Source of the DNA: Chloroflexota bacterium
GTDB lineage: Bacteria; Chloroflexota; Dehalococcoidia; JACPPY01
Assembly (NCBI GenBank): GCA_040754215.1
Contig: JBFMDE010000002.1
Coordinates: forward strand, 1 to 61,446
DNA length: 61,446 nt
Reading direction: 5' to 3'
Each line of letters starts with the position of its first letter. Positions within the stretch are counted from its first letter, which is position 1. The notes below the pieces were generated by a model, which saw only the letters and a program-made list of their open reading frames with translations, had not been told where the DNA came from and ran no database searches. This document shows, piece after piece, positions 1,419 through 32,855 of this stretch. Made by a program: the position numbers and the translations under genes.

Positions 1419-1754
1419 TCATGCTGTTGTTCTCGCCCCTTCTTCTCCAGTCTGGGAAGCCTGTGACTGCCTGCGCCGACCTTTCCAGCCCAGTATCCTG
1501 AGGAAATCTCCGATGGCCGTGTCCTGATGTATTGTGTGACGCAATGGCAGGTCGGGATTGATGCGGTAGCGGATGCGCCGGCCCTCTCTCTTCTTCTTAA
1601 TGTATCCGGCGTCGTCGAGGTCGGCGATGATCTTGCGGGTAGCCCTCTCGGTGATCCCTATGGCCAGGGATACCTCACGGGCCGTGATCCGTGGGTGCCT
1701 GGCAAGGAAGCCCAGCACCAGGGCGTGATTGGTAAGAAAAGTCCACTCCGGCAT
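1419..1754 (-). CDS. Small winged-helix DNA-binding regulator (MarR/ArsR-like)
   Basis: 111 aa. LARHPRITAREVSLAIGITERATRKIIADLDDAGYI reads as a helix-turn-helix plus wing. Probable operon with the GH57 gene. Confidence 0.6.
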   Translation of the reverse strand: MPEWTFLTNHALVLGFLARHPRITAREVSLAIGITERATRKIIADLDDAGYIKKKREGRRIRYRINPDLPLRHTIHQDTAIGDFLRILGWKGRRRQSQASQTGEEGARTTA

Positions 1755-1801
1755 GGCACGTTACTCCTGAGAAAATCTCGGCACGGTTGCCGGAAAACCC
1801 C

Positions 1802-1830
1802 TTGACAATAGCAGAGAGTGGTGGTAAGGT
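1802..1830 (+). promoter_or_regulatory. Candidate sigma70-type promoter facing the KamA-like operon
   Basis: TTGACA (1802-1807), 17 nt spacer, TAAGGT (1825-1830). Perfect -35, weak -10. By eye only. Confidence 0.3.
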
Positions 1831-2186
1831 ATTCATGATGTCAAGTTCACTATACTGATGTCATGACTGAGAGTTCACAGTTGCCCCTTGTTTTATAGCA
1901 TAAGCGGAGGGGGGATTGCAACCCTCCGCTTGTTCATAGGAGGGACGAGCAGGAGCACAAGATGTCAGAACAGGGGGGGAGCCATCACAAGAGTCACAGG
2001 CCCGGCTCTCAGCGCTGGTGCAGGGAGGCCCCGCTGGCAGCGGAGGTTGTCCCCTCAAATATTCTCAGCCAGCCCCTTCAAGACCCTCTTGACTACTGGT
2101 TGTGTTAGTGGTATATCATTACACAACGGGATGTGTTTGTCAGGCACGGAGCTTGGGTGCAAAAGTAAAGGAGAAGTAAGCGGGAG

Positions 2187-3548
2187 ATGAGAGTGATAGC
2201 AGGAAGCAAAGGGCAAGGAGTTGGTGTGGTAGAAGAAGAGCCTCCCTCGGGGGCTGGGCTGGTGGTGAGAGAGGTAGAGGAAGAACCTCCGAGTACTGGC
2301 GCCACTTCCGTGAGGGGGAGGTGGTTTGGTGGGGTGAGTGATGTGGAGTGGTGTGACTGGAAGTGGCAATTTCGCAATCGGATCATGACGGTAGAAGGGC
2401 TAGCGAAGTACATACCTCTTAGTGTCAAGGAACAGACACGGCTGAAGCTGGTAACCTCCAAGTATCCCCTTTCGGTGACCCCCTATTATCTATCCCTCAT
2501 AGATGCATCTGACCCTGAGGACCCGATAAGGAAGCAGGCGGTACCCTCGTTTGCTGAGGTAGGGCTTTCTGGCGTAGGGCTGGAGGACCCGCTGGATGAG
2601 GAGAGAGAGTCGGTGGTACCGGGGCTGGTGCATCGGTATCCAGACCGGGTGTTGATGGTACTGACAGACATCTGTCCGGTATTGTGCCGGCACTGCACCC
2701 GGAAGAGAGAGTGGAGGAAGGGAAGGTGGATGAGGAACGAAGAAGAGGTAGAGACGATGCTGGCGTACATACGGGAGCATCGAGAGGTGAGGGATGCGAT
2801 CATCTCTGGCGGAGACCCGTTGACGCTGTCGACGAGGCGGTTGGAGGGGGTAATAAAGGGGTTGAGGGGGATAGGGCATGTGGAGGTGATACGGATAGGG
2901 ACCCGCTATCCGGTGGTGATGCCGCAGCGAGTGGATGACGAGCTATGCGGGATGCTCTCGAAGTACGGGCCGATATGGGTGAACACGCATTTCAATCACC
3001 CACGGGAGGTGACGGAGGAGGCTGCTGAGGCCTGTGAGCGGTTGTTGCGGGCGGGGGTGCCGGTGAACAATCAGTCTGTGCTGCTCCGTGGGGTAAACGA
3101 CAGTGTTGGGGTGATGAGGGAACTCTGTCACCGTTTGCTCAAGGCGAGGGTGAGGCCGTACTATCTGTTTCAGTGTGATGAGGTGAGGGGCACGGAACAT
3201 TTGAGGACGCCGGTAGAGGTGGGGATAAAGATAATAGAAGGAATGAGGGGGCACACTTCAGGGTTGGCGGTACCGGCGTTTGTGGTGGACCTGCCTCGTG
3301 GTGGTGGGAAGGTCTCGTTACAGCCGGAGTATGTGGTATCGTGGAGTGAGAGTGAGGTGGTGTTGAGGAACTATGAGGGACGGCTATTCCGCTACCGGAA
3401 TCCTCGTGGTGCCGGCGTGTCTAGGAACGGGCATCGCAATGGGAATGGGAATGGGAATGGGAATGGTATGGTAAGCCACAGGACTCAGGAGCATCGGGAA
3501 CCACAGCTTCACCTCAGACATGAAGATAGGGCTGGCGTACGACCTTAA
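2187..3548 (+). CDS. KamA-family radical SAM aminomutase (lysine 2,3-aminomutase-like)
   Basis: WCDWKWQFRNR N-terminal motif, CPVLCRHC (CxxxCxxC) cluster and GGGK PLP-lysine region. The start is uncertain: ATG 2187 has AAGGAG about 11 nt upstream, and in-frame GTG 2334 has GGAGGTG 10 nt upstream. Confidence 0.85.
   Translation: MRVIAGSKGQGVGVVEEEPPSGAGLVVREVEEEPPSTGATSVRGRWFGGVSDVEWCDWKWQFRNRIMTVEGLAKYIPLSVKEQTRLKLVTSKYPLSVTPYYLSLIDASDPEDPIRKQAVPSFAEVGLSGVGLEDPLDEERESVVPGLVHRYPDRVLMVLTDICPVLCRHCTRKREWRKGRWMRNEEEVETMLAYIREHREVRDAIISGGDPLTLSTRRLEGVIKGLRGIGHVEVIRIGTRYPVVMPQRVDDELCGMLSKYGPIWVNTHFNHPREVTEEAAEACERLLRAGVPVNNQSVLLRGVNDSVGVMRELCHRLLKARVRPYYLFQCDEVRGTEHLRTPVEVGIKIIEGMRGHTSGLAVPAFVVDLPRGGGKVSLQPEYVVSWSESEVVLRNYEGRLFRYRNPRGAGVSRNGHRNGNGNGNGNGMVSHRTQEHREPQLHLRHEDRAGVRP
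3438..3466 (+). repeat. Hexanucleotide microsatellite (AATGGG)x4 plus a partial unit, encoding an (NG)n run
   Basis: Direct reading: aatggg aatggg aatggg aatggg aatgg inside the 3' tail of the KamA-like ORF. Translated as NGNGNGNGNG. Confidence 0.9.
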
Positions 3549-4527
3549 GGGAGAGGTGCCCCTGGGCGAGGGCCAGCCCGACGATGCTCTGGAGGAGTAT
3601 GACTCACTGGAGACAGTGGATGGCTTGGCGATGGCCATTGAGGCCAGGGGTCATTCTGTGGTCAAGCTGGGGGGTGGCAAGGCCTTCCTCGTCAATATCC
3701 TGAAGGAAAGGGTAGACCTGGTATTCAATGTGGCCGAGGGCTGGGGGAGCTACCGCAGCAGAGAAGCCCAGGTGCCATCTGTCCTTGAGATGCTGGGGAT
3801 ACCGTATTCTGGGTCCGACCCCCAGTGTTTGACGGTGTGTCTGGATAAGTCCCTTACCAAGAAGCTGGTAAGTCTGACCGGTGTATGCACACCGCGTTGG
3901 GAGGTGGTGAGGAGTCTTGGGGACCTGCAAGAGATATGCTGGGACAGTTTTCCGTTCCCGGCCTTCGTGAAACCGGCATGTGAGGGGTCGAGCAAGGGCA
4001 TTCGCGCTGGCTCCCGTGTGGAGAACCGGGAGAGAATGGCCGATGTAGTTGGGGGGCTGTTGGATGTTTATCGGGAGTCGGTGATGGTTGAGGAGTTCAT
4101 CGCTGGTGACGAGGTCACGGTAGGGATTGTGGGCAACTCACCACCCAGGGTCCTGGGAATAATGCGTGTGCTGCCCAAGGGTTGTGCTGGCAACTTTGTC
4201 TATTCTCTGGAGGTTAAGCGGGATTGGGAGAACCTGGTCGAGTATGAGTGTCCTGCACAGCTCGAACCAGGAGTGCTGCGGAGAATCGTTGAATCGAGCC
4301 TGAAGGCCTTCGAAGCACTGGGGTGCAGGGACTTTGCGCGTTTGGACTTCAGGGTGAATGCTGAGGGCATTCCCTATTTTCTGGAGATAAACCCGCTGGC
4401 CGGGTTGAACCCGAGGAGCAGCGACCTGCCTATCATGGCACGTAAGCTGGGCTTGAGCTATGGGGACCTGGTCGCGGCCATACTTGATTCTGCCGTGGAG
4501 AGATATCCCGCATGCGCCCCAGGGTAG
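3520..4527 (+). CDS. ATP-grasp ligase, D-alanine--D-alanine ligase family (paralog 1)
   Basis: 335 aa. Ddl-family layout: N-terminal MKIGLAYDL start, central ATP-grasp and C-terminal EINPLAG motif. The start overlaps the KamA-like ORF by 29 nt. Confidence 0.8.
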   Translation: MKIGLAYDLKGEVPLGEGQPDDALEEYDSLETVDGLAMAIEARGHSVVKLGGGKAFLVNILKERVDLVFNVAEGWGSYRSREAQVPSVLEMLGIPYSGSDPQCLTVCLDKSLTKKLVSLTGVCTPRWEVVRSLGDLQEICWDSFPFPAFVKPACEGSSKGIRAGSRVENRERMADVVGGLLDVYRESVMVEEFIAGDEVTVGIVGNSPPRVLGIMRVLPKGCAGNFVYSLEVKRDWENLVEYECPAQLEPGVLRRIVESSLKAFEALGCRDFARLDFRVNAEGIPYFLEINPLAGLNPRSSDLPIMARKLGLSYGDLVAAILDSAVERYPACAPG

Positions 4528-5525
4528 CCACCATCTACAATCATCCAGAACCTGACCGCTATGGCGACATGGGCGAGGCCGAGGCGGTTCTTGGCATTAT
4601 GGAGACGGTGGAGGCAGTGGGTGGGGCATTGTCTGGCCTTGGCTACCCGGTGACACGAGTCCCATTGCAGCCACCGCTGGAGCACGCCCTGGGAGCGCTG
4701 AACTTCCTGAGCACTGATGTGGTCTTCAACCTCTTCGAGGGTTTCGACGGCCGTCCGGAGACGGAAGCCGTCGTGGCCGATGCCCTTTCGAGCCTGGGAT
4801 TGACCTTCACCGGCTGTCCCGGTAATGCACTGGCCCTGGCGCTGGACAAAGCTAGGGCCAAGTCACTGCTGAAGGCAGCAGGGATTAGTACACCCGCGTA
4901 CTGTGTCCTCAGCCCTGGAGCTATCTCCAGATTCAATCTGAACTATCCGTGTATCGTCAAGCCTCTGCGGGAAGACGCCAGCCATGGCCTCTCCGAAGAG
5001 AATGTGGTCCGCGACCAGGTCTCACTGGAGAGACAGGTGGCCAGGGTGAGCGAGTTCTTCGGTGGTGAGGCGCTGGTAGAGGAGTTCGTCGGGGGGCGGG
5101 AGTTTAACGTTACTGTGCTCGGTGACCGCGAGCTTTCTGTCCTCCCGGTCTCGGAGATAGTCTACTCGCTGCCGCCCGAGATGCCGCGCGTCCTCACTTT
5201 CGCTGCCAAGTGGGAACCAGGGAGCCTCTACTTTCGTCGTACCAAGCCCGTCTGCCCTGCGAGGATAGGTGCTGAAGAGAGGGAACGCATCGGCTCTATT
5301 GCCCGGGCGGCATTCACGCTGTTCGGTTGCCGTGGCTATGCCAGGATGGACATGAGGTTGGACCGGAATGGCGTGCTCAACGTCCTGGAGGTAAATCCCA
5401 ACCCGGACATATCGCCCGGGACCGGAGCGGCCCGACAGGCCGAGGCGTCCGGGCTGACCTATGCTCAATTTATGGAGAAGATACTGCTCCTAGCCTTGGA
5501 GAAAGATTTAGTTATGGCGGTATGA
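4512..5525 (+). CDS. ATP-grasp ligase, D-alanine--D-alanine ligase family (paralog 2)
   Basis: 337 aa, with the same architecture as the preceding ORF (EVNPNPD C-terminal motif). GGAGAG lies 9 nt upstream. Overlaps the upstream gene by 16 nt. Confidence 0.8.
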   Translation: MRPRVATIYNHPEPDRYGDMGEAEAVLGIMETVEAVGGALSGLGYPVTRVPLQPPLEHALGALNFLSTDVVFNLFEGFDGRPETEAVVADALSSLGLTFTGCPGNALALALDKARAKSLLKAAGISTPAYCVLSPGAISRFNLNYPCIVKPLREDASHGLSEENVVRDQVSLERQVARVSEFFGGEALVEEFVGGREFNVTVLGDRELSVLPVSEIVYSLPPEMPRVLTFAAKWEPGSLYFRRTKPVCPARIGAEERERIGSIARAAFTLFGCRGYARMDMRLDRNGVLNVLEVNPNPDISPGTGAARQAEASGLTYAQFMEKILLLALEKDLVMAV

Positions 5526-6001
5526 CAGTAGTGGTACGGGCTATGACGGCGGAGGACAAGCCAGCAGTGATGCGCATCCTGCGGGCTATACCTGAGTTTC
5601 TGTCCGTCGAGGTTGCGGTGGCCGAGGAGGTCATTGACTGCTATCTGGGTGACCCATCTGGGTCTGGTTACCTCGCGCTGGTAGCAGAGGCAGCCCTTGG
5701 GGTCGTGGGCTATGTTTGCTACGGCCCGACTCCATTGACCCAAGGCACCTGGGATATTTACTGGATTGCGGTGGCTCGAGAGCAGCAGGGGTATGGCATA
5801 GGGAAGAAGATGCTGGCGGTCGCTGAAGAAAGGATGAGCGAGGCTGACGCTCGGCTCCTCCTCGTCGAGACATCTTCGAAGCCGGAGTATGAGAAGACGT
5901 GGGGCTTCTACCGCTCTCAGGGCTACGAGGTTATCTGTCGTATCCCCGATTTCTATGCCCCGGGTGATGCCATGCTGGTCTTCCATAAGAGGCTGAGGTG
6001 A
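5522..6001 (+). CDS. GNAT-family N-acetyltransferase (159 aa)
   Basis: The internal ATG at 5522 forms an ATGA overlap with the stop of the preceding gene. QQGYGIGKKML acetyl-CoA-binding motif. The track ORF 5327..6001 extends upstream into the ATP-grasp gene in another frame. Confidence 0.8.
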   Translation: MTVVVRAMTAEDKPAVMRILRAIPEFLSVEVAVAEEVIDCYLGDPSGSGYLALVAEAALGVVGYVCYGPTPLTQGTWDIYWIAVAREQQGYGIGKKMLAVAEERMSEADARLLLVETSSKPEYEKTWGFYRSQGYEVICRIPDFYAPGDAMLVFHKRLR

Positions 6002-6041: not shown

Positions 6042-7799
6042 TTATGCGCCTCTGACGTGGCCTTGCGGGTCAAGGTTTCGGAGTAACATCAGCTCCCTGG
6101 GAGTGGGTGGGGGGACGAGGGCGAGTGCGGGGGCGGCCCTCGGTTGCCAGCCACAGTTCTTCCTTATCCGTGCTAGGGCTGCTGTAGCATCGGCCTGTCC
6201 GTGGCCGGTGAAGTAGCGCACAAGCATGAACTCGGCGCCGCTGCCGTGCTTCTCGAAGATGCCCATGTCGGATACCAGGGTCTGTACCCTGACTCCCGGG
6301 GTGGTGATGTAAGGAAGGCGTTCCACGAAGCGTTCGGCGGACTGTGGTATGACCACCAGCACATCCGGGGCATTGGCGGCGTCGTTGGCGCCACCCGAGC
6401 CCACCAGCAGGGCACCCTCTGCGGTCAGGGAGGAGTTGAGGTTGCCGAACCTGTCCACCTGAGCTGCATTCAGGACTGTGAGGCACCTGCTGTTCCGTCC
6501 GCCCACGAACACGCCCTGACAGTCCACGATGTCAGTGACCATCTTGGAGGTGGCGAGGTTGGACATGCTGAGTGGCAGTGTGTCGCCGGGCCGTGGAGCA
6601 AAGCCGACGAACCCGGTCCCGGTCATGAGGTCTATGTCTATGCCCTTGTTTCGGAGTTGATAGTATGCCAGCCAGGAGACAAGGGACGGCAGCCCCAAGC
6701 CGCTGATTATCAAAGCGTACCCTCGCTCCATGACCAGCCTCTCGACCTCTCTGGCCGCTGCAACCAGCATCATCTCCGTGTCATTCCACCCCTCCTGGCG
6801 TGGTATCTGGGCCAGCGCGACTGAGCCCTGTGCCTGTCTTTGCAGTGCGGATATCCTCTCTGCTCCCAGTTTGCGAATGTAGTTTTCATGTGGACAGTCC
6901 AGGACCCACTCTCTTAACCAGGCATCCAGTGACCGGGGGTTGAGGCTCGCATTACGGCAGTCACGCAGGAATTCGAAGTCATGCTCATAGGCCCTGAGCC
7001 CCTCCACACCTACCCGGACCATGGCTTCAGGATGAGCCCCCATGCTTGCTTCGCATACTGCTGCCACCATGTGTCCAGGAATGGTCACCAGTGGTGCGTG
7101 TCTCCGTATGAAATCAGTGGATACCACCTTTTCTACGCTCACCACCGCACCGCCCTTGCTGGCCTTTGTGCCCCAGAGACAGTCACCACTCTCTATTGCT
7201 GGCGCGGTGATGGTGAAGCCATAGTGGTCGGCGGCCCAACCGTGTACTAGGGCGATGTCAGGATTCAATGCTTTCACCGCCCCCACCTCTATCCCGCTGC
7301 CGAAGGGGTCTTCTATCAGTGAGAAAGACCTCTGGTTCTCCTCAGCCATGCTGCTGCCCTGCAGGGAGCGGGTGGGCAAGAATGGCAGACCCAGTGCCCC
7401 GGCCATCAGCCTCTGTGTCAGGGAGAGAAGGCTCCAACTCTCGAGTTCTACCTTGCCCTTGCGATTGAGCTCCTGTATGACCGGGCTGGGCCCGGTGGTG
7501 GGGTAGTATCCGGCCCCATAGTATGCGGTGACTATCCTCTTGACCAGTCCGGCATGCAGCAAGTGGATGGCGGAGAGGGAGAGTGCTGGCATCACCAGAG
7601 TGAATTCCGGCTTGGTGCCATGAAACTGTCGCAGCAGGGCACGCAGAGCGGCGTTGGCACCACTGCCGATATACAGGACCATCCCGGGCTTCACTGTCTG
7701 CCTGATTGCCCTGTCCAGAGCGTTGACCTTGCTCCGCCCTTCGTGCTCCGGCAGCTGGAAGTCCTGTGTGCGCCAGGGCTTGGGCCTACGGCGTTCCAA
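6042..7799 (-). CDS. Family I CoA-transferase-like protein, fused GctA-like and GctB-like halves
   Basis: 585 aa. The N-half resembles the glutaconate CoA-transferase A subunit (GSGANA, PFLPTR, LVHGW). The C-half resembles the B subunit (AAQVDRFGNLNSS, GSGGANDAA). Confidence 0.7.
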   Translation of the reverse strand: MERRRPKPWRTQDFQLPEHEGRSKVNALDRAIRQTVKPGMVLYIGSGANAALRALLRQFHGTKPEFTLVMPALSLSAIHLLHAGLVKRIVTAYYGAGYYPTTGPSPVIQELNRKGKVELESWSLLSLTQRLMAGALGLPFLPTRSLQGSSMAEENQRSFSLIEDPFGSGIEVGAVKALNPDIALVHGWAADHYGFTITAPAIESGDCLWGTKASKGGAVVSVEKVVSTDFIRRHAPLVTIPGHMVAAVCEASMGAHPEAMVRVGVEGLRAYEHDFEFLRDCRNASLNPRSLDAWLREWVLDCPHENYIRKLGAERISALQRQAQGSVALAQIPRQEGWNDTEMMLVAAAREVERLVMERGYALIISGLGLPSLVSWLAYYQLRNKGIDIDLMTGTGFVGFAPRPGDTLPLSMSNLATSKMVTDIVDCQGVFVGGRNSRCLTVLNAAQVDRFGNLNSSLTAEGALLVGSGGANDAANAPDVLVVIPQSAERFVERLPYITTPGVRVQTLVSDMGIFEKHGSGAEFMLVRYFTGHGQADATAALARIRKNCGWQPRAAPALALVPPPTPRELMLLRNLDPQGHVRGA

Positions 7800-7812
7800 T
7801 CTGACCTCCGTA

Positions 7813-8976
7813 CTAGTAGGGGAGATAGTCGCGCCCCAGTAGCTCGCGGGTGATGACTACCTTCTGTATCTGGGCTGTACCATCTGCCAGTTCATGGCCG
7901 ACCACATCGCGCAGGCGTTGCTCCAGTCCGAATTCCTCGCTGTAGCCCGTGTGGCCGCAGACCAGGATACAATGGTGGATGATCCTGCCGGCGACCTGGG
8001 GTACCCACCACTTGGCCATCGCAGTCTCCTTGGAGTGACGCCTTCCCTGGTCACGCAGCCACAGCGGGCGGTAGGACATCATGCGTGCGGCTTCCAGTAA
8101 CGTGGCTGCTTCGGCGAGCTGGAAGGATACCCCCTCCCAGCGTGCTATGGGCTGTCCGAAGGCCCTGCGCTGTTTGGCATACTCGATGGCCTCCTCCAGG
8201 CTGACTGCGGCCGCGCCGAGGGTCATCAGGCACAGTATCACACGGGCGAAGTCGAAGAATTCCATGGCCAAGTAGAATGCCTGTCCTTCCTGTCCCAGCC
8301 GGTACCTTTCGTGAAGTCGCACGTTGTCCAGGATGAGGGAGGCTGAGCCGTACGACTTGCACCCGGAATAGGGGATGTGTGACCTCACCACCCCTGGCAT
8401 GTCGGCAGGCACCAGGAAAGCGGTTATTGTCTTCGGGCTCCTGCCGGTGGCAGTCTTGGCAGTTATGTAGAACGCCTTGGCCTGCATCCCCATGGTGACG
8501 GCGGTCTTTTCACCTTTGATCAGGTAGTGGTCGCCCTCTCGCACTGCTTTTGTCTCTATGGCTGCCGCGTCAGAGCCGCAGCCGGGCTCGGTGTTGCCGA
8601 AGGCGATTATGGTCTCTCCCCGGCAGACGGGCGTCAGCCACTCGTGAACGAAGTCTCCGGGGTTGGTCTTGATGGCAGCATGCAGCAGCGTGGGGTATGT
8701 GAAGAGGATGGACTCGCTCATGTTTCCGCGGGCTACCTCTTCGGCTGCTATGCCCGCTGATAGAGAGTCACCGGGCTGTCCCCCGTATTCCTCCGGCATG
8801 TTGATGCCCAGTAGGCCCATCTCTCCCAGCCTTCTCACTACCCACGGCTCCACGAAGTCCTGCTTGGCACGCTTCCTGGCTGTGGCAAGCAACTCGCGAC
8901 GGACAAACTGCCTCACGTTGTCGCGGAGCATCAGGTGCGCTTCGGAGAGGCCAAACTCTGCTGTTCTCTCGGTCAT
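7813..8976 (-). CDS. Acyl-CoA dehydrogenase
   Basis: 387 aa with the typical ACAD three-domain pattern (FGNTEPGCGSD, C-terminal IYEGT-like AQIQK region). Confidence 0.9.
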   Translation of the reverse strand: MTERTAEFGLSEAHLMLRDNVRQFVRRELLATARKRAKQDFVEPWVVRRLGEMGLLGINMPEEYGGQPGDSLSAGIAAEEVARGNMSESILFTYPTLLHAAIKTNPGDFVHEWLTPVCRGETIIAFGNTEPGCGSDAAAIETKAVREGDHYLIKGEKTAVTMGMQAKAFYITAKTATGRSPKTITAFLVPADMPGVVRSHIPYSGCKSYGSASLILDNVRLHERYRLGQEGQAFYLAMEFFDFARVILCLMTLGAAAVSLEEAIEYAKQRRAFGQPIARWEGVSFQLAEAATLLEAARMMSYRPLWLRDQGRRHSKETAMAKWWVPQVAGRIIHHCILVCGHTGYSEEFGLEQRLRDVVGHELADGTAQIQKVVITRELLGRDYLPY

Positions 8977-9027
8977 GCAGTCCGTTCCTTCCCTTCATTG
9001 GGTGTATGCCATGGCTAGCGAGACCCC

Positions 9028-10581
9028 TCACATCTGCAGGTTGCCGTGCTTTTTCTCTGGCCTGTGGTCCTGCTTATTCTGCAGTACCTCCAGAGTCGCG
9101 ATCAGCCTGGCGCGCGTCTCCTCTGGCTCGATGACATCGTCAATGTAGCCCCGTTCGGCGGCTACATATGGATTGACGTAATACTCAGCATACTCGGCTA
9201 TTCTTCTTGCTTTGACCTCCTCCGGGTTGGCCGCGGCGGCGATCTCCTTGGCGTAGAGCACGCTGGCGGCGGTAGCGGGGCCAACCAGGGCTATCTCTGC
9301 GGTGGGCCAGGCGAACATGAGGTCTGCCCCGATAGGCTTGTTGCACATGGAGAGCTGTGCCCCGGCATAGGAATGGCGGACCACCAGTGTAACCTTTGGC
9401 ACCGTGGCCTCGGTGTAGGCGTAGAGCATCTTGGAGCCGTGGCGTATGATCCCTTTGTACTCCTCGTCCCTCCCTATCATCACTGCTGGCGAGTCCTGGA
9501 ACTGGACCAACGGAACGTTGAAGGAGTCGCAAATACGGACGAACCTGGCCAGCTTGTCCGAAGCGTCAACATCTATGACGCCGCCTTTCACCGTTGACTG
9601 GTTGGCCACGATACCCACAGAATGCCCGCCGAGGCGGGCGAACCCGGTGATCATGTTGGGGGCGAAGTCGCGTTTGACCTGCAGCATGTGGCCGTTGTCC
9701 ACGACCTGGAGGATGAGCTTGCACATATCGAAAGGCGCACGTGAGTCGTCAGGCAGCAGCCCAAGGATGCCCTTGTTAGCACGTGGGGCTGTATCTCCTG
9801 TGTCCAGCCATTGGGGCCTCTCGCCGCTGTGTGAGGGCAGATAGGAGAGCAGTTCCTTAGTGAGTTCCATGGCATGGGCATCGTCCTCCGCCACCAGGTC
9901 GGCCAGCCCCGTGATCCTGCTGTGCACCTCAGCGCCACCCAGTTCATCGGCGGTGGCCTCGTAGCCGAGCATTGTTTTGACAAAAGCAGGCCCGCCCATA
10001 TACATAAAAGCTGTCCTCCTGGCCATGATGATGAAGTCGGTAAGCGCTGGCCCATAGGCTGCTCCACCACCACAGTGCCCTAGCAGCAGTGAGACCTGCG
10101 GGATCACCCCGTTGCATAGCGTATGACGCCGGAAGAGCAGGGCGTACCATTCGCTGGAGTCCTGTCCTTCCTGGAGTCTGGCGCCGCCGGAATCGATCAT
10201 CATGATGAAGGGACATCGGGCGGCGAGGGCGAGGTCAATCGCCTTACATGCCTTCTTACCGTGCATCTCTCCGTATGTGCCGGCGGCTACGGTGAAGTCC
10301 TCCGCAGCGACGAATACAGGCCGTCCCGACACCTTGCCATATCCAGTGACGATGGCATCTGCTGGTAGTTCCTTCCCCTCCATGCCGAAGGCCGAACACC
10401 GATGCTTCACCAGGGGGTCAATCTCCTGGAATGTCCCGGAATCCAGGAGCCTATCTATGCGCTCACGCGCGGTCAACTTTCCCATGGAGTGCTGTTGTTC
10501 AGTCTGTCTGGCTCCGCCCATCTGGAGTATCCGAGACTTCCGTCTTCTCAGCTCCTCCAGCTTTCGTAGATTTGAGTCCAC
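9028..10581 (-). CDS. Acyl-CoA carboxylase carboxyltransferase subunit (PccB / methylmalonyl-CoA decarboxylase alpha-like)
   Basis: The track ORF runs to 10884, but homology starts at LRKLEELRRR..GKLTARERI. GTG at 10581 follows AAGGAGAGGAG. The upstream extension overlaps the neighbouring ACAD gene. Confidence 0.85.
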   Translation of the reverse strand: MDSNLRKLEELRRRKSRILQMGGARQTEQQHSMGKLTARERIDRLLDSGTFQEIDPLVKHRCSAFGMEGKELPADAIVTGYGKVSGRPVFVAAEDFTVAAGTYGEMHGKKACKAIDLALAARCPFIMMIDSGGARLQEGQDSSEWYALLFRRHTLCNGVIPQVSLLLGHCGGGAAYGPALTDFIIMARRTAFMYMGGPAFVKTMLGYEATADELGGAEVHSRITGLADLVAEDDAHAMELTKELLSYLPSHSGERPQWLDTGDTAPRANKGILGLLPDDSRAPFDMCKLILQVVDNGHMLQVKRDFAPNMITGFARLGGHSVGIVANQSTVKGGVIDVDASDKLARFVRICDSFNVPLVQFQDSPAVMIGRDEEYKGIIRHGSKMLYAYTEATVPKVTLVVRHSYAGAQLSMCNKPIGADLMFAWPTAEIALVGPATAASVLYAKEIAAAANPEEVKARRIAEYAEYYVNPYVAAERGYIDDVIEPEETRARLIATLEVLQNKQDHRPEKKHGNLQM

Positions 10582-10616
10582 CAGTTGTCTCCTCTCCTTA
10601 CCGGGATTTGATATCC

Positions 10617-11828
10617 TTACTTTGAGGGCAACCCCAGTCCCCTGAGTGCCACGATGTTGCGGAGGATTTCCGACGTCCCTCCGCCGATGGTCTGCATTAC
10701 GGACCTCAGGTAGCAGGTAGCCGGTAGGCCATGGAACAGCCTGTGTTTCGACGAGGGTAGTAACTGCCCGTGAAGGCCAAGAATCCGGGTCGCTGTATTG
10801 GCCAGACGCTGCTGGAACTCCGCTCCGTATGTCTTGGCCATAGCCGCCTCGTAGGTGGGCACCTTTCCCTCCGTGAGTATCCATGCGACCCGGTAGATCA
10901 ACAAGCGTCCAACCTCCATCTCCACCGCAAGCTCCGACAGCTTGGCCCTGACAACTGCGTCCGCCACCGGCTGCTCCCGTTTGCCATGCGTTTTCAGGAC
11001 ATAGGCCATCACGTCGCCGAACAAGAGGTAGTTGCCCATCAGGCGTTCGATTCCGGCACGCTCGTAGTCGAGTTGTTTCACTATCTGGTTCCAGCCCTGG
11101 TTCCGCTGTCCCAGCAGCGTGCTGCCGGGAAGCCGCACGTTATCCAGGTACACTTCGTTGAAGTCGTGACCGCCGGCCATGTCTAACAGCGGACGGACGG
11201 TGATCCCTGGCAGTCCAAGTTCTACGATGAACTCGCTGAGGCCGCGGTGTTTTGGCACACTCGGGTCGGTGCGGGCCACCAGGTACATGAATGAGGCGCG
11301 GTGCGCGTTGGTGATGTACGTCTTCTGACCGTTGACTATGTAGCCGCTGCCATCCCATTGTGCGCGTGTGGTGAGTGAAGCCAGGTCCGAGCCTGCCCCT
11401 GGTTCGCTCATGCCGATGCAGAAGCTGACCTCTGCCTGACTTATGCGCGGCAGGAACCATTGTTTCTGGTCTTCGCTCCCATGGGCCAGGATGGCTGGGC
11501 CCACCTGACGGTCGGCATGCCAGTGGTATGCCACCGGGGCGCCCGCACGCATCATCTCCTCTGTCAGGACCAGCCGGTCTAGGTATGTACGTCCCTGTCC
11601 CCCGTACTGCGCCGGCCAGGTCATGCCGATCCAGCCTCTTGCAGCAAGCTTGTGTGAGAGTTCCGGCGACCATCCTATTAGCCAGCCATCGTACAATGGC
11701 GTGAAGGAGCCACGAGCGTGCTCGGCGCTGAGGAACCGCCTTGCTTCGTCGCGGAAGGTTTCTTGCTCGGGCGTGAGACCGAACCTCACGTTTACATGCT
11801 CCCCTTCCGGCTTGCTAGCTGTACACAT
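10617..11828 (-). CDS. Acyl-CoA dehydrogenase
   Basis: 403 aa with an ACAD pattern (GMSEPGAGSDLAS, GGTSEILRNI). The exact start is uncertain. Confidence 0.9.
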   Translation of the reverse strand: MCTASKPEGEHVNVRFGLTPEQETFRDEARRFLSAEHARGSFTPLYDGWLIGWSPELSHKLAARGWIGMTWPAQYGGQGRTYLDRLVLTEEMMRAGAPVAYHWHADRQVGPAILAHGSEDQKQWFLPRISQAEVSFCIGMSEPGAGSDLASLTTRAQWDGSGYIVNGQKTYITNAHRASFMYLVARTDPSVPKHRGLSEFIVELGLPGITVRPLLDMAGGHDFNEVYLDNVRLPGSTLLGQRNQGWNQIVKQLDYERAGIERLMGNYLLFGDVMAYVLKTHGKREQPVADAVVRAKLSELAVEMEVGRLLIYRVAWILTEGKVPTYEAAMAKTYGAEFQQRLANTATRILGLHGQLLPSSKHRLFHGLPATCYLRSVMQTIGGGTSEILRNIVALRGLGLPSK

Positions 11829-11914
11829 GTTGCCCCCGGCTCGCAGGGTGAGTGCCCCTGCTCTCCGAAAGGCAAGGTTGATTCCCCCTGTTGATACCTG
11901 TTACACTGTGCGCC

Positions 11915-12415
11915 ATGAATAAGTCAAAATTCGACGCATTAGATTGGGCCATAGCCTCCCAGTTGTCGGAAAACGCGAGGTTGTCCACGAGGAAGATTGC
12001 CGCTAAGTTGCCGCTCAGCGAGGCGACGGTGCGCAGAAGGTTGAAGCGCCTGGTAGATGCCGATGCTATCTGCCTGCGGGCCTTGATCGACCCGGTGTTC
12101 TTGGGTTTTAACATCTGTGCGCTGGTTGGACTGAGCGTGCGCATGGACAATGTAAGCAAAGTCGTCGAGTTCCTGCGCCGGTGTGACAACGTAGTCTATG
12201 TGGCCATCGTCTCTGGCCGCTTCGATGTTATGCTCATGGGTGTGTTCCAGTCGGTGGATGACCTGCTCAAGTTCATGGAGACCGAGGTCGGGACTCTGGA
12301 TGGAGTCAAGGGGACTGAGACTCTCATATCCCTCCGCATTGAGAAAGGAAAGCACATATACTTGGGCGCCCAGGCAAAGCGGCGCGCTCACCACCAGCCC
12401 GATTCCAAGGCCTGA
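11915..12415 (+). CDS. Lrp/AsnC-family transcriptional regulator
   Basis: Starts at ATG 11915 (MNKSKFDALD). N-terminal HTH (ARLSTRKIAAKLPLSEATVRRRL) plus a C-terminal RAM-like domain. Divergent from the ACAD gene. Confidence 0.85.
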   Translation: MNKSKFDALDWAIASQLSENARLSTRKIAAKLPLSEATVRRRLKRLVDADAICLRALIDPVFLGFNICALVGLSVRMDNVSKVVEFLRRCDNVVYVAIVSGRFDVMLMGVFQSVDDLLKFMETEVGTLDGVKGTETLISLRIEKGKHIYLGAQAKRRAHHQPDSKA

Positions 12416-12420
12416 TTCGC

Positions 12421-13650
12421 TCATGGAGCTCCTATTATGGTGACGCCGGCGACGAACTTGCCGGGGTGTCCACCCTGGTTGTGCGCCAGTCCCAGGCGGG
12501 GGTTCTTGAGCTGTCTTGATGGTTTCTCCGCCTTTCCCTGGTATTGCTTGTAGAACTCGTACACCTCCCGGCAGCCGCTGGCCCCTAGCGGATGGCCGAA
12601 GGACTTGAGGCCACCACTGATGTTGATCGGTATTTCTCCCTCCTGTGTCCAGGCCCCGGACTCAATGTCCTCCCGGCCGTGGCCCTTCTCGCAGATTCCC
12701 AGAGACTCCACGGCGATGACCTCGGCGATGGAGAAGCAGTCGTGTACCTCAGCCAGGTCCAGTTCTTTGCGGGGGTCCCTTATCCCGGCCTCCCGGTAGG
12801 CGTACCTGGCGGCATACTCTGTCTCCGGCCAGGAGGTGTAGTCGTAGTCAGTCCTCTCTTTGCCCCAGCCGGGCCCGGCGGCGATGCCGAGGCCTTTGAT
12901 GGTGATGTAGTCCTTGCGGAAGCTCTTGGCCTCTGAGGCGCGACAGAGCACGGCGGCGGCGGCGCCATCGGTGACGCCGCAGCAGTCGAACAGGCCTAGG
13001 GGCCAGGCGATGATGGGGGCACTCATGGCCTGCTCAACGGTTATCTCCCTCTGTAGGTGCGCACGCGGGTTCCTGGCGCCATTGTGGTGGCTTTTCACCG
13101 AGACCATGGCGAGCATCTTCTTCCCTTGCTCTGCGCTGAGGCCGTAGCGGGCGAAGTACCTTGTGGCTGCCATGGCATAGCGACCGGGTGCGGTGCCTCC
13201 CATGCCGTACACCGGGCTGTAGCGCCCGGGCTGGATGACGCCCAGGCCACCGAACCCGACGTCCTTGAGCTTCTCCACGCCGATGACCAGCACTACGTCA
13301 TAGGCCCCGGCCCCGATGGCGTAGGCAGCGCCCCTGATGGACTCGGCGCCGGTGCCACAGGCGTTCTCCACCCTGGTCACCGGCAAGTACTGAAGGGAGA
13401 GTGCCGCGGAGGCCAGGCTACCGGTGACGATGCCTCCGCCCTCTGCCGACTGGCTACCCCAGACCGACCCCAGCCATACCGCCTGGATGTCCTTGATGTC
13501 GGCCCCGGCATCCTCCAGGGCTTCAAAGGTCGCCTCATAGATGAGGTCGTTGATGTCCTTGTCCCAGTGCTCCCCGAACCTGGTGCAGCCCATGCCCACG
13601 ATAGCTACTTTATCTTTTGTGCTCTCGGCCATCTTCTGCTCCTTTCTCAC
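12421..13650 (-). CDS. SCP-x-type thiolase (acetyl-CoA C-acyltransferase family)
   Basis: 409 aa. VAIVGMGCTRFG, NACGTG (nucleophile Cys) and GHPLGASGC motifs. ATGA start/stop overlap with the upstream gene. Confidence 0.85.
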   Translation of the reverse strand: MRKEQKMAESTKDKVAIVGMGCTRFGEHWDKDINDLIYEATFEALEDAGADIKDIQAVWLGSVWGSQSAEGGGIVTGSLASAALSLQYLPVTRVENACGTGAESIRGAAYAIGAGAYDVVLVIGVEKLKDVGFGGLGVIQPGRYSPVYGMGGTAPGRYAMAATRYFARYGLSAEQGKKMLAMVSVKSHHNGARNPRAHLQREITVEQAMSAPIIAWPLGLFDCCGVTDGAAAAVLCRASEAKSFRKDYITIKGLGIAAGPGWGKERTDYDYTSWPETEYAARYAYREAGIRDPRKELDLAEVHDCFSIAEVIAVESLGICEKGHGREDIESGAWTQEGEIPINISGGLKSFGHPLGASGCREVYEFYKQYQGKAEKPSRQLKNPRLGLAHNQGGHPGKFVAGVTIIGAP

Positions 13651-15065
13651 TGTTCCCGGCAGGGGCGCAGCTTCCAGAAGTAGTTGTGGATGCCCAGGGC
13701 ATCGTGTATCCTGCGGAAGGTGGGCTCCATACGCATGCCCACCTTTATCTTCGCCGGGTCACGGTCGGTGACCTGACCATAGAGCCTGCCCCCTCCATCC
13801 AGGTCCACTGCCGCCAGTACGTTGGGCGGGTCTGGCACCGGCGTCCGCTCGTCCAGGCTGAAGGTGAACAGAGAGCCCTTCTTATCTGAGAGCCTGACCT
13901 CGTCGAAGTCCTTTCTCGCCTGGCAGTAGATACACACGTTCTGCATCGGGAACTGGATATTGCCGCACTGGCGACACCTGTGCCCTCTCAGACGGTACAC
14001 CATCTTGCGGTCCCGCCACAGTAGCGGCAGCGAGGTGCGAAAGCGGTACTCCAAGCTGGGTTCGGGCTCCATCAGGTTGCGGAAGCGGATGTACTTGCCG
14101 TAGTTGGTGAGGAGGTCTTTAGATGATAGATGACGCTTCACGCCACGGCGGTCGCGCACCGCTTCGACCTTCCCTGTAGTGCGGAAGGAGAAGGCAGCGG
14201 CCCCGTCCCCGTAGGTGCCGAAGAGCACCCTGTCCCCGGCCCTGGCCTCCTCCAGGGCGGCCACCAGAAGCATCGGGGCGAAGGCGGCCCCTGTGTTGCC
14301 CAGGACATCGAATAGGGGGTTCTGCACCTGTTTATTCGCATCCAGATTCAGCGTGCGGGCCATTGCGGTGTGCGTACGGGCGTCGGGCGCGTAGAAGACG
14401 GCTTTGGCGAAGTCTTGTGGACTGGCATTGAGCTTCTTCAGCAGGCCGGACACGGCCGCGGGCAGTAACCTGTTGTAGCCTTCCTCAATGATGAACCGTT
14501 CCTCCCAGGTGCGCGGGCCGGCATCGGTGTCCAACCGCCACACGTCTAGGAACTCACTGGAGAGGGCATGGCTGCCCTCGACCTCGGCTATGACGCCGTC
14601 CTTACCGACGATGAAAGCGGCGGCGCCGTCGCCGAAGAGGAGCTCCGATGCCGAGCCGGGGTGTGGCAGTCGCGAATCGGAGGCCACCACCAGCACCTGG
14701 CGTGCCGACCCCGCGGTGACGGCGTCTAGGGCTGCCTGCAGCGCGCTGGCTGCGGCGCGCAGGGAACTGGTGAAGTCCGCGCTGTGAAGGTCATCGCGCA
14801 GGTCGCAGGCAGCAGCCACTATGCTGGCGGAGAGCTTCTCCTTATAGGGCAGCGTGGTGGAGGCGAGGTAGAGGGCATCTATCTGAGTGCGGTCAATGCC
14901 GTTCAGGCAGTCGAGGGCTGCCTCCACCGCCATGGTGATGCTGTCCTCGTCTACGTTGGCCACCGCCCGCTCGCCCTTGCCCCTGCTGCCCCAGACCCGT
15001 GACAGCACCTCACCGCTGAGTCGGTATATCGGGACGTAGGCCCCGTAGCTGACTATGCCTGACAT
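13647..15065 (-). CDS. HMG-CoA-synthase-like domain fused to a DUF35-type zinc-ribbon/OB-fold domain
   Basis: ATG 15065 is preceded by AAAGGAGG. The N-terminus IVSYGAYVPIYRL..VWG is archaeal-HMGCS-like. The C-terminus has CRQCGN..CIYCQ plus an OB-like tail. The track ORF extends spuriously to 15341. Confidence 0.8.
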   Translation of the reverse strand: MSGIVSYGAYVPIYRLSGEVLSRVWGSRGKGERAVANVDEDSITMAVEAALDCLNGIDRTQIDALYLASTTLPYKEKLSASIVAAACDLRDDLHSADFTSSLRAAASALQAALDAVTAGSARQVLVVASDSRLPHPGSASELLFGDGAAAFIVGKDGVIAEVEGSHALSSEFLDVWRLDTDAGPRTWEERFIIEEGYNRLLPAAVSGLLKKLNASPQDFAKAVFYAPDARTHTAMARTLNLDANKQVQNPLFDVLGNTGAAFAPMLLVAALEEARAGDRVLFGTYGDGAAAFSFRTTGKVEAVRDRRGVKRHLSSKDLLTNYGKYIRFRNLMEPEPSLEYRFRTSLPLLWRDRKMVYRLRGHRCRQCGNIQFPMQNVCIYCQARKDFDEVRLSDKKGSLFTFSLDERTPVPDPPNVLAAVDLDGGGRLYGQVTDRDPAKIKVGMRMEPTFRRIHDALGIHNYFWKLRPCREQ

Positions 15066-15088
15066 TGTGATGCCTCCTTTTGTTAGGT

Positions 15089-16006
15089 TCAGTTGGCCTT
15101 CAGTTTGAACACCTTGAGGGCGTTCTCCCGCAAGACCTTCCTCTTGGTCTCGTCCTTGATGGGCAGCTCGAGGAACTCCTTCTTGCACCGCGTCAGGCCG
15201 AACCCGTTGCTGGCCCAGAGTACCTTGTCCTGGCCGCGGACGCTGTCCATGAACCGCACCTGTGCGGGGTCGAGGGAAGACGGATAGTAGGCGCCGATGT
15301 TGCCGTAGACATTGGGGTGCTTCCAGACCATTGACATCCACTCCTCGACCCAGGGCCAGCCGGTATGGGTGAGCACCAGGGTTAGCTCGGGAAAGTCCAG
15401 TGCAACCTCGTCTGCATACATGGGGCGCCCCGGTTCACTGGGCAGAGGCTCTGCCGACTGTCCCGACTGGTAGCAGCACGGTATCCCGAGTTCGATGCAC
15501 TTGGCGTAGAGCGGGTACATCTGCTTGTCGTTGGGCCTCAGGCCGAAGGTTATCGGATGAGCCCACACATACTTGAACCCATAGTCCTTGACCGCCCGTT
15601 CTACGGCCTCCAGGCTCTCCTTGATTCGGAACGGGTTGTACCCGGCACCTCCGACCACCCTGCCTTTCGTTTCCCTGCTTATCTCGGCTAGGGTTTCGAT
15701 GGTGTAGTTGCCCCATAGCCTGTGTTCACGGCGTGACCAGCCAATCATCTGGTCCATGAACACATACTCCACCCCGATGGCGTCCATCTCCTTGAGCATC
15801 TCCTGTACTGAGCCCTTGCCCATTGCGGCCAGCACCTTCCATTCCTCGCCAGGACCCGCACCGATGCGCTTCAGCACCCCGCCGAAGGTGCTCACCGCCA
15901 TGACCTGAAACTCATAGAAGTGGAACAGCTCCTTGGTCTTTTCCGGGGGCAGGCAGTAGAATGGGCGGCACATCGAGTCAATGGCCTTGATTTCACCTAG
16001 CTCCAT
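15089..16006 (-). CDS. Amidohydrolase-2 family metal-dependent hydrolase/decarboxylase
   Basis: 305 aa. TIM-barrel amidohydrolase_2-like pattern (VLTHTGWPW, HP near the centre). Family-level call only. Confidence 0.7.
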   Translation of the reverse strand: MELGEIKAIDSMCRPFYCLPPEKTKELFHFYEFQVMAVSTFGGVLKRIGAGPGEEWKVLAAMGKGSVQEMLKEMDAIGVEYVFMDQMIGWSRREHRLWGNYTIETLAEISRETKGRVVGGAGYNPFRIKESLEAVERAVKDYGFKYVWAHPITFGLRPNDKQMYPLYAKCIELGIPCCYQSGQSAEPLPSEPGRPMYADEVALDFPELTLVLTHTGWPWVEEWMSMVWKHPNVYGNIGAYYPSSLDPAQVRFMDSVRGQDKVLWASNGFGLTRCKKEFLELPIKDETKRKVLRENALKVFKLKAN

Positions 16007-26800: not shown

Positions 26801-26914
26801 CGTGCGGGGTGACGTGGCGCCGAGGGCGGCACCTCTGCTGGCAATACTGTACAGTAATGCGCCGCCGGCGCCGGCTCCAGATAGCTTGAGAAATTGCCTG
26901 CGATTCAGTTCCAC
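23876..26914 (-). CDS. fdnG: Selenocysteine-containing formate dehydrogenase alpha subunit (molybdopterin, Tat-exported)
   Basis: Track ORFs 26342..26914 and 23876..26296 are in frame across TGA 26342-26344. The read-through sequence is ARI-U-HSSTVAGLGNNFGRGVMTNHW. Twin-arginine signal RRQFLK. GTG start is preceded by AAAGGAGG. Confidence 0.9.
26298..26341 (-). promoter_or_regulatory. SECIS-like hairpin immediately 3' of the in-frame UGA
   Basis: On the minus strand GUUGCC (26329-26324) pairs with GGCAAC (26317-26312) around loop GGUCUG. An outer UCCUC/GAGGA pairing extends the structure. The hairpin starts about 12 nt after the UGA. Confidence 0.6.
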
Positions 26915-31916: not shown

Positions 31917-32855
31917 ATGAGTATAGAATCAGGCGACCCAGACAATCCAGACAAAGCCAACTGGTTCAGAGACGCGCTCAGTCCCGACCTGGTGCAGTTT
32001 CACCGCGTCAGGGGCAGGCTGTATTCTGGCCGGACCAGATTTCAGTCCGTTGACGTCATTGAGACCGGCGGCTTTGGCCGGTGTCTTGTCCTCGATGGAC
32101 GGGTCCAGTCCACTGAGGGGGACGAGTTCATCTACCACGAGGCGCTGGTGCAGCCCGCGATGCTTGTGCACCCGGGACCTCGGTCTGTGCTCATCGCCGG
32201 TGGTGGTGAAGGAGCAACCCTGCGCCAGGTGCTTTTGCATTCGACAGTGACCAGGGCGGTCATGGTTGACATTGATGAGGAAGTGATCAGGGTCTCTCGT
32301 GAGTATCTCCCTAGTCTTCATGGTGGCTCATTCGATGACCCGCGGGCTGAACTGGTGATGGGCGATGCCAGGAAGTACATAGAGACAGGCAGGCGGAAGT
32401 TCGACGTGATTGTCCTTGACCTGCCGGAAGCGCTGGAGCAGGGGCCGGCTCGTCTTCTCTACACTCACGAGTTCTACAGCGTAGTGCAGAAGAGGCTGGA
32501 ACCCGGTGGCATCCTAGCATTGCAGGCGGACAATGCTTCGTGGGGTTGTCTCAATGGTTTCCCGGCTATCATCAATACTCTGAAAAGCGTATTTCCTGTT
32601 GTCCGCCCTTATCAGGCACACATACCTTCCTTCGGGGGCTCATGGGGTTTTGCCACTGCGTCTCAGGGCCTCGACCCATTGACTCTGTCCGCGGAGCGGG
32701 TTGACCGAGTTATCGCCGAGAGGAGAGTCAATGGCCTGAGGTTCTACGACGGGCTCACACACGTTCACCTCTTCTCACTGCCCAAACACCTGCGCAACCG
32801 CCTTGACCAGGAGCAGCGGGCCATCTCCGATGCTGCCCCTCTGTCTGTAGCGTAG
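31917..32855 (+). CDS. speE: Spermidine synthase (aminopropyltransferase)
   Basis: 312 aa. LVLDG..Q..E.DEFIYHE and GGGEGATLRQVL motifs. Adjacent to speH. Confidence 0.9.
   Translation: MSIESGDPDNPDKANWFRDALSPDLVQFHRVRGRLYSGRTRFQSVDVIETGGFGRCLVLDGRVQSTEGDEFIYHEALVQPAMLVHPGPRSVLIAGGGEGATLRQVLLHSTVTRAVMVDIDEEVIRVSREYLPSLHGGSFDDPRAELVMGDARKYIETGRRKFDVIVLDLPEALEQGPARLLYTHEFYSVVQKRLEPGGILALQADNASWGCLNGFPAIINTLKSVFPVVRPYQAHIPSFGGSWGFATASQGLDPLTLSAERVDRVIAERRVNGLRFYDGLTHVHLFSLPKHLRNRLDQEQRAISDAAPLSVA

Follow-up and report, generated by a model that had tools for sequence, protein, structure and literature searches.

What product requires an aminomutase, two ATP-grasp ligases and an N-acyltransferase to be made together? 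The question is raised by a four-gene operon at 2187-6001 in a 61,446-nucleotide (nt) stretch of DNA from a Chloroflexota bacterium of the class Dehalococcoidia (contig JBFMDE010000002.1), which we call the window. An earlier note on this DNA, made from the sequence alone, proposed that the operon builds an N-acetylated di- or tripeptide containing beta-lysine or another beta-amino acid. We find that its genes encode members of the KamA, ATP-grasp (D-alanine–D-alanine ligase, Ddl, fold) and GNAT superfamilies for which membership tests for AblA, AblB, EpmB and Ddl failed, and that they bring familiar enzyme chemistry together in a widely conserved combination of which we found no earlier report. 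As to what they do, we favor, at somewhat better than an even chance, a pathway in the cytoplasm that starts from lysine and yields an N-acetylated di- or tripeptide containing beta-lysine, with a divergent MarR-like regulator in control. A conserved EEEPP[G/S] motif in the aminomutase, the divergent regulator and gene fusions in other lineages go beyond the earlier note. The parts of the operon are as follows (lengths in amino acids, aa).

2187..3548, plus strand: KamA-family radical S-adenosylmethionine (SAM)/pyridoxal phosphate (PLP) lysine 2,3-aminomutase-like enzyme (open reading frame 1, ORF1), 453 aa; TIGR00238, PDB 2A5H
2232..2249, plus strand: EEEPPS motif copy 1, aminomutase N-terminal extension
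2277..2294, plus strand: EEEPPS motif copy 2, aminomutase N-terminal extension
3520..4527, plus strand: AG1 (ORF2), Ddl-fold ATP-grasp ligase, 335 aa; Pfam Dala_Dala_lig_C, NCBIfam, AlphaFold 2 (AF2) model
4512..5525, plus strand: AG2 (ORF3), second Ddl-fold ATP-grasp ligase and AG1 paralogue, 337 aa; Pfam, NCBIfam, fold
5522..6001, plus strand: small GNAT N-acyltransferase (ORF4), 159 aa; Pfam Acetyltransf_1/7/10

The Gene Set Is Conserved in Order and Persists through Rearrangement and Fusion

The four plus-strand ORFs overlap by 29, 16 and 4 nt, as the note had described and as both the ORF list and a base-by-base reading of the junctions bear out: the aminomutase stop codon (TAA, 3546-3548) lies beyond the AG1 start (ATG, 3520), the AG1 stop (TAG, 4525-4527) beyond the AG2 start (ATG, 4512), and AG2 and the GNAT gene share an ATGA at 5522-5525. 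The length of the GNAT is counted from this ATG, the mechanical ORF beginning earlier, at TTG 5327.

A scan for AG1 relatives, with one genome per species, returned at least 599 stretches, of which at least 545 encode an AG1 relative. For comparison of gene neighborhoods we used 15-kb loci from the best 80 of these stretches, together with three look-up loci; this set of 83 is biased to close relatives, and its taxon labels are those given by the depositors of the metagenome-assembled genomes (MAGs). Almost all of the best 80 are Dehalococcoidia MAGs. The order aminomutase, AG1, AG2, GNAT on one strand is found in 71 of the 83 loci, and a further 11 hold a prefix or suffix of it, consistent with contig ends. 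The remaining locus, from a Syntrophales MAG (L076), has AG1, AG2 and GNAT followed by a shorter KamA-like gene that is 42% identical and keeps both of the substrate-site aspartates discussed below. The conservation of the neighborhood on which the note had left its proposal to depend is thus borne out: the four-gene order is beyond chance and conserved across Dehalococcoidia, and rearranged and fused forms occur in other phyla. An unclassified metagenome contig (L086) has the order DUF3109, AG1, AG2::GNAT fusion, aminomutase, and a Kiritimatiellia MAG (L087) has an aminomutase gene followed by an AG2::GNAT fusion, with a single ligase domain. Fusions of this type, about 500-540 aa long, are also present among the 1,218 clusters of AG2 relatives (50% identity, E<=1e-30). 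Because the linkage of aminomutase, Ddl-like ligase(s) and GNAT persists where genes are reordered or fused and where the aminomutase is of another subfamily, it is strong evidence that these enzymes act in one pathway.

Two related arrangements were seen beside the operon family. In L086 a DUF3109/Rv0495c-family gene (2597-3223) stands ahead of AG1, and another protein (P0246) joins a DUF3109/Rv0495c domain and a Ddl-like ATP-grasp domain in one chain, so that this family may be a further ligase partner. Myxococcota (Anaeromyxobacter) and Bdellovibrionota encode double Ddl-like ATP-grasp proteins of ~680-730 aa, followed by a gene for a Peptidase_S58 (DmpA/BapA-type) aminopeptidase (L084 8001-11763; L085 8001-11227), an uncharacterized ligase-peptidase pair. 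We considered these proteins as AG1-AG2 fusions and rejected the idea: both halves are nearer to AG1 (40% and 34% identity), and they form a related family, not an orthologous fusion.

ORF1 Is Most Likely a Lysine 2,3-Aminomutase

All of the KamA hallmarks that the note had read in ORF1 (W-C-DWKWQ, CPVLCRHC and GGGK) are present in its translation and align without gaps to Clostridium subterminale KamA (PDB 2A5H; E 1e-136). ORF1 passes the KamA family model TIGR00238 (342 bits, cut-off 199.2) and stays below the models for glutamate 2,3-aminomutase (443 against a cut-off of 650), arginine 2,3-aminomutase (412 against 600) and EpmB (237.5 against 369.3 bits). The radical-SAM cysteines C163/C167/C170, together with R172 and the PLP lysine K375, correspond to C125/C129/C132, R134 and K337 of 2A5H and are invariant in 73 orthologues. 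So are D331 and D368, which correspond to D293 and D330 and are also kept in the Syntrophales variant; in the KamA structure this aspartate pair holds the epsilon-ammonium group of lysine, and glutamate 2,3-aminomutase has other residues at the two positions. Because the cysteines, the PLP lysine and both epsilon-amine aspartates are retained, the substrate of ORF1 is most likely lysine and its predicted product beta-lysine. The choice between beta-lysine and another beta-amino acid, which the note had left open, is thereby narrowed to the former by the conserved equivalents of Asp293 and Asp330.

The clostridial zinc site, formed by C268 and a C-terminal CxCxxC, is missing: C268 is replaced by Ser in ORF1 and by Ser or Thr in the family, and the tail is free of Cys, in agreement with the note. 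A conserved C-terminus of the aminomutase ('...RDEDRAxVRS') was discounted as a by-product of the gene overlap, since the same DNA codes for the conserved N-terminus of AG1 in another frame.

The Two Ligases Keep Catalytic Residues of Ddl and Lack Its D-Alanine-Site Residues

AG1 and AG2 are paralogues (27% identity, E 5e-29) and members of the Ddl family by Pfam (Ddl C-terminal domain) and NCBIfam, as the note had recognized. They are, however, not bona fide Ddl enzymes by profile hidden Markov model: the best NCBIfam Ddl scores are 171 bits for AG1 and 143 bits for AG2 against a cut-off of 243 (NF002378), and both proteins are far under the cut-off of all other Ddl, equivalog and Van models. 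A sequence search of the PDB gave ~90-105 bits against solved structures, the only non-Ddl match being the L-amino-acid ligase BL00235 (PDB 3VOT; E 1e-6 to 1e-8). AlphaFold models (mean predicted local distance difference test score 82 for AG1 and 89 for AG2) match Ddl structures with template modeling (TM) scores of 0.72-0.79 at 20-28% identity, with the best matches of AG1 at ~0.75 and 22-27%; the models bear out the Ddl fold and gave no substrate information.

We aligned 82 AG1 and 78 AG2 sequences with Escherichia coli DdlB, checked against PDB 2DLN; residue registers at the N-terminus and omega-loop are uncertain. The ATP, Mg and transition-state residues of DdlB (K97, K144, E180, E187, R255, D257, E270 and N272) are kept in both ligases. 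For the D-Ala site we compared H63, E68, S150, Y216 and S281/L282 of DdlB. Residues of this site are replaced, in AG1 by H63->E, E68->R and L282->D, and in AG2 by H63->E, S150->A, Y216->W and L282->G. Manual, and hence uncertain, registers place an Arg at Y216 and E25 at the equivalent of Glu15 in AG1, and an Ala at the Glu15 position in AG2; in DdlB, Glu15 binds the free amine of the donor. With the catalytic residues kept and the D-Ala-site residues replaced, AG1 and AG2 are predicted to be competent ATP-grasp amide ligases with non-D-Ala pockets.

ORF4 was correctly assigned in the note as a 159-aa GNAT. It exceeds the Pfam cut-offs for Acetyltransf_1/7/10 and carries the acyl-coenzyme A (CoA) motif Q-x-x-G-x-G as QQGYGIG. 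Among solved structures it is closest to PDB 2R7H (E 8e-25), a structural-genomics entry titled 'putative D-alanine N-acetyltransferase'.

A Double EEEPP[G/S] Motif Marks the Aminomutase Family

The note had described the ends of ORF1 as low-complexity; this had to be given up for the N-terminal end, which holds two conserved copies of EEEPP[G/S]. Two copies of [EA]-E-E-E-P-P-[GS] are found in 56 of 67 aminomutase orthologues, 11-17 residues apart and with the second copy 23-31 residues ahead of W-x-DW-x-WQ, and the flanking residues vary freely. The codons of the motif differ synonymously between orthologues, which argues for selection at the protein level. No match exists in the 244,497 aa of all other ORFs of the same loci, and a six-frame scan of the window finds the motif solely at 2232-2249 and 2277-2294. 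At the DNA level, a scan of metagenomes for the double motif returned at least 120 stretches, with fewer than one chance match expected by a rough estimate; among the listed stretches with room for a gene, it stands directly before a KamA-like gene in 102 of 112. The other listed stretches comprise 8 without room for a gene and, for the rest, tandem (EEPPG)n linkers or short unrelated ORFs. In genomes and metagenomes alike, the double motif is almost confined to this family of aminomutase genes. It is missing from the KamA-like genes found in L076, L086 and L087, which makes the motif an accessory of the Dehalococcoidia form.

The motif may serve for docking of the ligases, as an acceptor or scaffold for ligation onto its glutamates, or for pausing at PPG/PPS that depends on elongation factor P (EF-P); in the last case, the PPG/PPS pairs could put translation of the beta-lysine-forming enzyme under EF-P dependence. 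No AG1 or AG2 alignment column separates motif-bearing from motif-less clusters, in a comparison that includes only 3-4 motif-less sequences.

A Proposed Route to an N-Acetylated Beta-Lysine Peptide

In the pathway that we favor, for which the four genes would form a translationally coupled biosynthetic operon, the KamA-like enzyme would turn L-lysine into beta-lysine by a radical-SAM/PLP mechanism, the step for which the residue evidence speaks most strongly. AG1 and AG2 would then each form one amide bond with ATP via an acyl-phosphate, as in Ddl, with pockets apparently remodeled for a substrate other than D-alanine, and the GNAT would acylate, most simply acetylate, a free amine, probably in close cooperation with AG2, its fusion partner in other lineages. 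We expect these steps to yield a di- or tripeptide-like amide that is N-acetylated and contains beta-lysine, following a logic akin to that of N-epsilon-acetyl-beta-lysine and N-acetylglutaminylglutamine amide (NAGGN). The order of the ligases can be suggested tentatively: AG1 appears to keep the donor-amine Glu and to have acquired acidic residues at positions that could accommodate a cationic acceptor, and AG2, which has lost the donor-amine Glu and is fused to GNAT elsewhere, may take an N-acetylated donor, as in the synthesis of NAGGN. In some Dehalococcoidales loci, a GNAT-HDAC amidohydrolase, described below, would take the acetyl group off during turnover. By analogy, the product is most likely a compatible solute or other abundant metabolite.

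Several observations weigh against this proposal. The best-scoring equivalog model for ORF1, AblA (TIGR03820), gives 487.3 bits and does not reach its cut-off of 525.4, and the three weak NCBIfam hits of ORF4 (RimI, AAC(6') and a generic GNAT; E<=1e-3) do not include AblB. One locus (L088) encodes AG1 and an AG2::GNAT fusion with no KamA gene within the ~11 kb fetched; in some cases the ligase/GNAT module may thus work on something other than beta-lysine. Genes known for osmoprotection do not regularly appear among the recurrent neighbors of the 80 loci, and the host sources given in record titles (groundwater, lakes, peat and marine), both fresh and saline, show no specific tie to osmotic stress. 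A plain small-molecule pathway leaves the conserved EEEPP[G/S] pair unexplained.

The motif figures in the alternative that the ligases act on protein, putting beta-lysine, which the GNAT would then acetylate, on glutamates for which the EEEPP[G/S] tail is the obvious candidate; EF-P would be another target. Parallels would be the loading of LysW by LysX and the branching by TTLL enzymes from the glutamates of acidic tails. Retention of the double motif in 56 of 67 orthologues under protein-level selection, its restriction to the aminomutase (zero in 244,497 aa elsewhere, 102 of 112 listed metagenome stretches), the match of two motifs to two ligases, and the established supply of beta-lysine for protein modification by EpmB, a KamA paralogue, all fit such a role. 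We nevertheless consider it unlikely: the motif-free aminomutases of L076, L086 and L087 indicate that the chemistry does without the motif, no ligase column tracks its presence, the conserved D293/D330 pair implies free lysine as the substrate, neither efp nor epmA is among the scanned window ORFs, and a context of regulator, transporters and deacetylase better suits a metabolite. A more specific version, to which we give a slightly lower chance, has the disordered N-terminus as a built-in scaffold or acceptor, the ligases loading beta-lysine or its peptide onto the motif glutamates or docking there one each. If true, the first enzyme of the pathway would also be the carrier for assembly of the product, a self-scaffolded counterpart to the amino-group carrier LysW or to pearlin-type biosynthesis. 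It is improbable, more so than modification of protein, that the two ligases alternate in the manner of cyanophycin synthetase on a beta-lysine poly-amide whose chain the GNAT caps. Two distinct ligases with conserved catalytic residues would serve this purpose, and the double ATP-grasp and Peptidase_S58 genes of Myxococcota and Bdellovibrionota would suit the making and degrading of an unusual peptide; yet no peptidase is conserved in the Dehalococcoidia operon, the Kiritimatiellia version has one ligase domain, the halves of the Myxococcota fusion are both AG1-like and hence of a different family, and we know of no Ddl-type enzyme that polymerizes.

Two more conventional explanations fare far worse. 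That one or both ATP-grasp genes encode true D-Ala-D-Ala or D-Ala-D-X ligases with incidental neighbors is suggested by the name 'D-alanine--D-alanine ligase', which public records attach to AG1 and its relatives, and by top Pfam, PDB and fold matches that are all Ddl. We hold an ordinary cell-wall role to be very improbable, as both ligases fall under every curated Ddl/Van cut-off, share 22-28% identity with solved Ddl enzymes and have replaced D-Ala-site residues; the partners to which they are constantly linked or fused across phyla, an aminomutase and a GNAT, do not make a Ddl context, and no Mur, Fts or other cell-wall gene is present among the ~45 window ORFs scanned, as the note had observed for murein genes, nor mur or ftsQ among the recurrent neighbors of the 80 loci. 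Least probable of all is that the aminomutase opens an anaerobic breakdown of lysine that continues through the products of the downstream genes (6042-15341) for CoA-transferase, acyl-CoA dehydrogenase, thiolase and carboxyltransferase. These genes lie on the opposite strand and are not recurrent neighbors in other loci; no beta-lysine 5,6-aminomutase, 3,5-diaminohexanoate dehydrogenase or 3-keto-5-aminohexanoate cleavage enzyme is found among the scanned ORFs, and ATP-consuming ligases and a GNAT are, to our knowledge, not catabolic steps of lysine fermentation.

Control Region and Variable Neighbors

Upstream of the operon lie two further features.

1419..1754, minus strand: small winged-helix regulator, MarR/ArsR-like, 111 aa; Pfam MarR_2 and HTH_24, weak ArsR/SmtB match
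1755..2186, plus strand: intergenic control region and long leader (~430 nt), function inferred

In ~35 of the fetched loci, and also in L001-L003, a homologue of the regulator stands upstream in the opposite orientation, and the divergent MarR-like regulator probably controls the operon. Within the leader are a TTGACA box (1803-1808) and a near-palindrome, TCATGATGTCA/TGATGTCATGA (1833-1866), as a candidate operator. The promoter-like box TATTGACAA also occurs upstream of 14 orthologous operons; apart from it, no nucleotide-level conservation of the leader was seen among the orthologous operons compared. A riboswitch or other known RNA was considered for the 430-nt leader and dropped, with no Rfam match at the gathering score or at E<=1. 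We also noted an inverted repeat of 10 perfectly paired bp, AAGCGGAGGG ... CCCTCCGCTT, around a 10-nt loop at 1902-1931, ~255 nt before the aminomutase start; no clear U-tract follows this hairpin. GC skew reaches 0.30 at 2001-4000, the aminomutase region, which is unusually high relative to the rest of the window.

On the opposite strand upstream, the MarR/ArsR-like gene is followed by a GH57 glycoside hydrolase gene. Downstream of the operon is a convergent CoA-transferase gene, and genes of acyl-CoA metabolism come after it. An osmoprotection context was sought in these surroundings and gave no consistent signal: GH57 next to the regulator recurs in few loci only, and the K+ channel and glycosyltransferase genes beside the operon in L001 are equally inconsistent, a similar glycosyltransferase being found in 5 loci.

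Among the variable neighbors, a gene of ~580 aa with a weak GNAT-like N-terminus and a histone-deacetylase (HDAC)/acetylpolyamine-amidohydrolase domain is found in 17 loci (e.g., L074 9745-11484, L046 9504-11243 and L063 9579-11357) and is absent from this window. In ~14 of the 17, a subset of Dehalococcoidales, it lies directly 3' of the operon GNAT gene on the same strand. Transporters of the MFS, CitMHS/ArsB and MarC types are near the operon in 8-11 loci each. Regulator, transporters and deacetylase are typical of small-molecule metabolism and suggest an acetyl-amine that is made and later removed. As a separate observation, 9 loci (e.g., L081 5288-5623, L074 4960-5286 and L063 5227-5556) have a gene for a conserved protein of ~110 aa shortly before that of the aminomutase, in the same orientation.

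Farther along the window, a formate-dehydrogenase-like molybdopterin oxidoreductase is encoded on the minus strand (23876-26914) as an Fe4S4 ORF (26342-26914) and a catalytic ORF (23876-26296), followed by 4Fe-4S, cytochrome b and FdhE-like genes; such a two-ORF split is the pattern expected of an in-frame UGA selenocysteine codon. A plus-strand ORF of 2,328 aa with NHL and RHS repeats (42056-49042) is overlapped by several long opposite-strand ORFs; the G+C content of its region is higher (0.63-0.64), and the AT skew there is strongly positive. A spermidine-synthase-family gene (31917-32855) and a histidine-biosynthesis operon (hisZ-like, hisG, hisD, hisC and hisB; 53323-59146) look ordinary.

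Comparison with Known Systems and Significance

By analogy, the logic of the operon can be regarded as a hybrid of AblA/AblB, Ngg-type N-acetyl-dipeptide synthesis, and the L-amino-acid ligases and carnosine synthase. AblA and AblB, of methanogens and some bacteria, make N-epsilon-acetyl-beta-lysine. They likewise link a lysine 2,3-aminomutase to a GNAT in an operon, and AblA is the best equivalog model for ORF1. Here, however, two ATP-grasp ligases stand between aminomutase and GNAT; ORF1 is under the AblA cut-off, is extended at its N-terminus by the EEEPP[G/S] region and is without the Cys motif at the C-terminus, and the 159-aa GNAT has no AblB match. In the AsnO-Ngg system, Ngg (GNAT plus ATP-grasp) makes the NAGGN precursor. 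An N-acetyltransferase is thus joined to an ATP-grasp enzyme for an N-acetylated dipeptide solute, a pairing that the AG2::GNAT fusions mirror; differences lie in the reversed order of the domains, the Ddl-type ATP-grasp, the absence of an amidotransferase gene from the operon and the supply of a beta-amino acid by an aminomutase. Carnosine synthase, which ligates a beta-amino acid, belongs with the L-amino-acid ligases (YwfE/BacD and BL00235) to the ATP-grasp makers of small peptides, one of which has a beta-amino acid donor, but these are very distant from AG1 and AG2 (E 1e-6 to 1e-8) and are single enzymes, not a conserved pair with a GNAT.

Other systems share single elements. Ddl and VanA-type ligases (D-Ala-D-Ala, D-Ala-D-Lac and D-Ala-D-Ser) have the three-domain fold and the ATP, Mg and transition-state residues in common with AG1 and AG2, which are set apart by sub-threshold scores, replaced substrate residues, lack of a cell-wall context and occurrence as paired paralogues. 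EpmB and EpmA beta-lysylate EF-P. There too the beta-lysine made by a KamA-family enzyme is taken up by an ATP-dependent ligase, but EpmA is a lysyl-tRNA-synthetase paralogue and not an ATP-grasp enzyme, ORF1 is well short of the EpmB cut-off (237 vs. 369), and neither efp nor an EpmA resembling aminoacyl-tRNA synthetases is present among the scanned window ORFs. Microviridin-type graspetide clusters resemble the operon in having two ATP-grasp ligases and an acetyltransferase, and LysW/LysX does so in that an acidic peptide segment could be substrate or carrier. In contrast to both, the ligases here are of the Ddl clade, and the acidic motif is on the aminomutase and missing in other lineages. 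No conserved small ORF for a separate precursor or carrier was seen in the operon, the sole repeat being EEEPP[G/S] inside the aminomutase. A full-text literature search, whose coverage left out most subscription-journal papers, returned no characterized pathway for the orthologous clusters, in line with the note, which had seen the combination of an aminomutase and two Ddl-like ligases in none of the systems it named.

The four-gene set thus constitutes a testable orphan pathway that joins three well-understood enzyme types. The EEEPP[G/S] pair poses a separate puzzle, namely what couples the aminomutase to its partner ligases or brings it under joint regulation with them. The public Ddl label on these ligases wrongly suggests cell-wall synthesis, and placing them in a beta-lysine pathway, as we propose, would correct a systematic mis-annotation. 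For the Dehalococcoidia, mostly uncultured bacteria that abound in aquifers, in sediments and in the deep ocean, the operon points to a new beta-amino-acid peptide metabolite.

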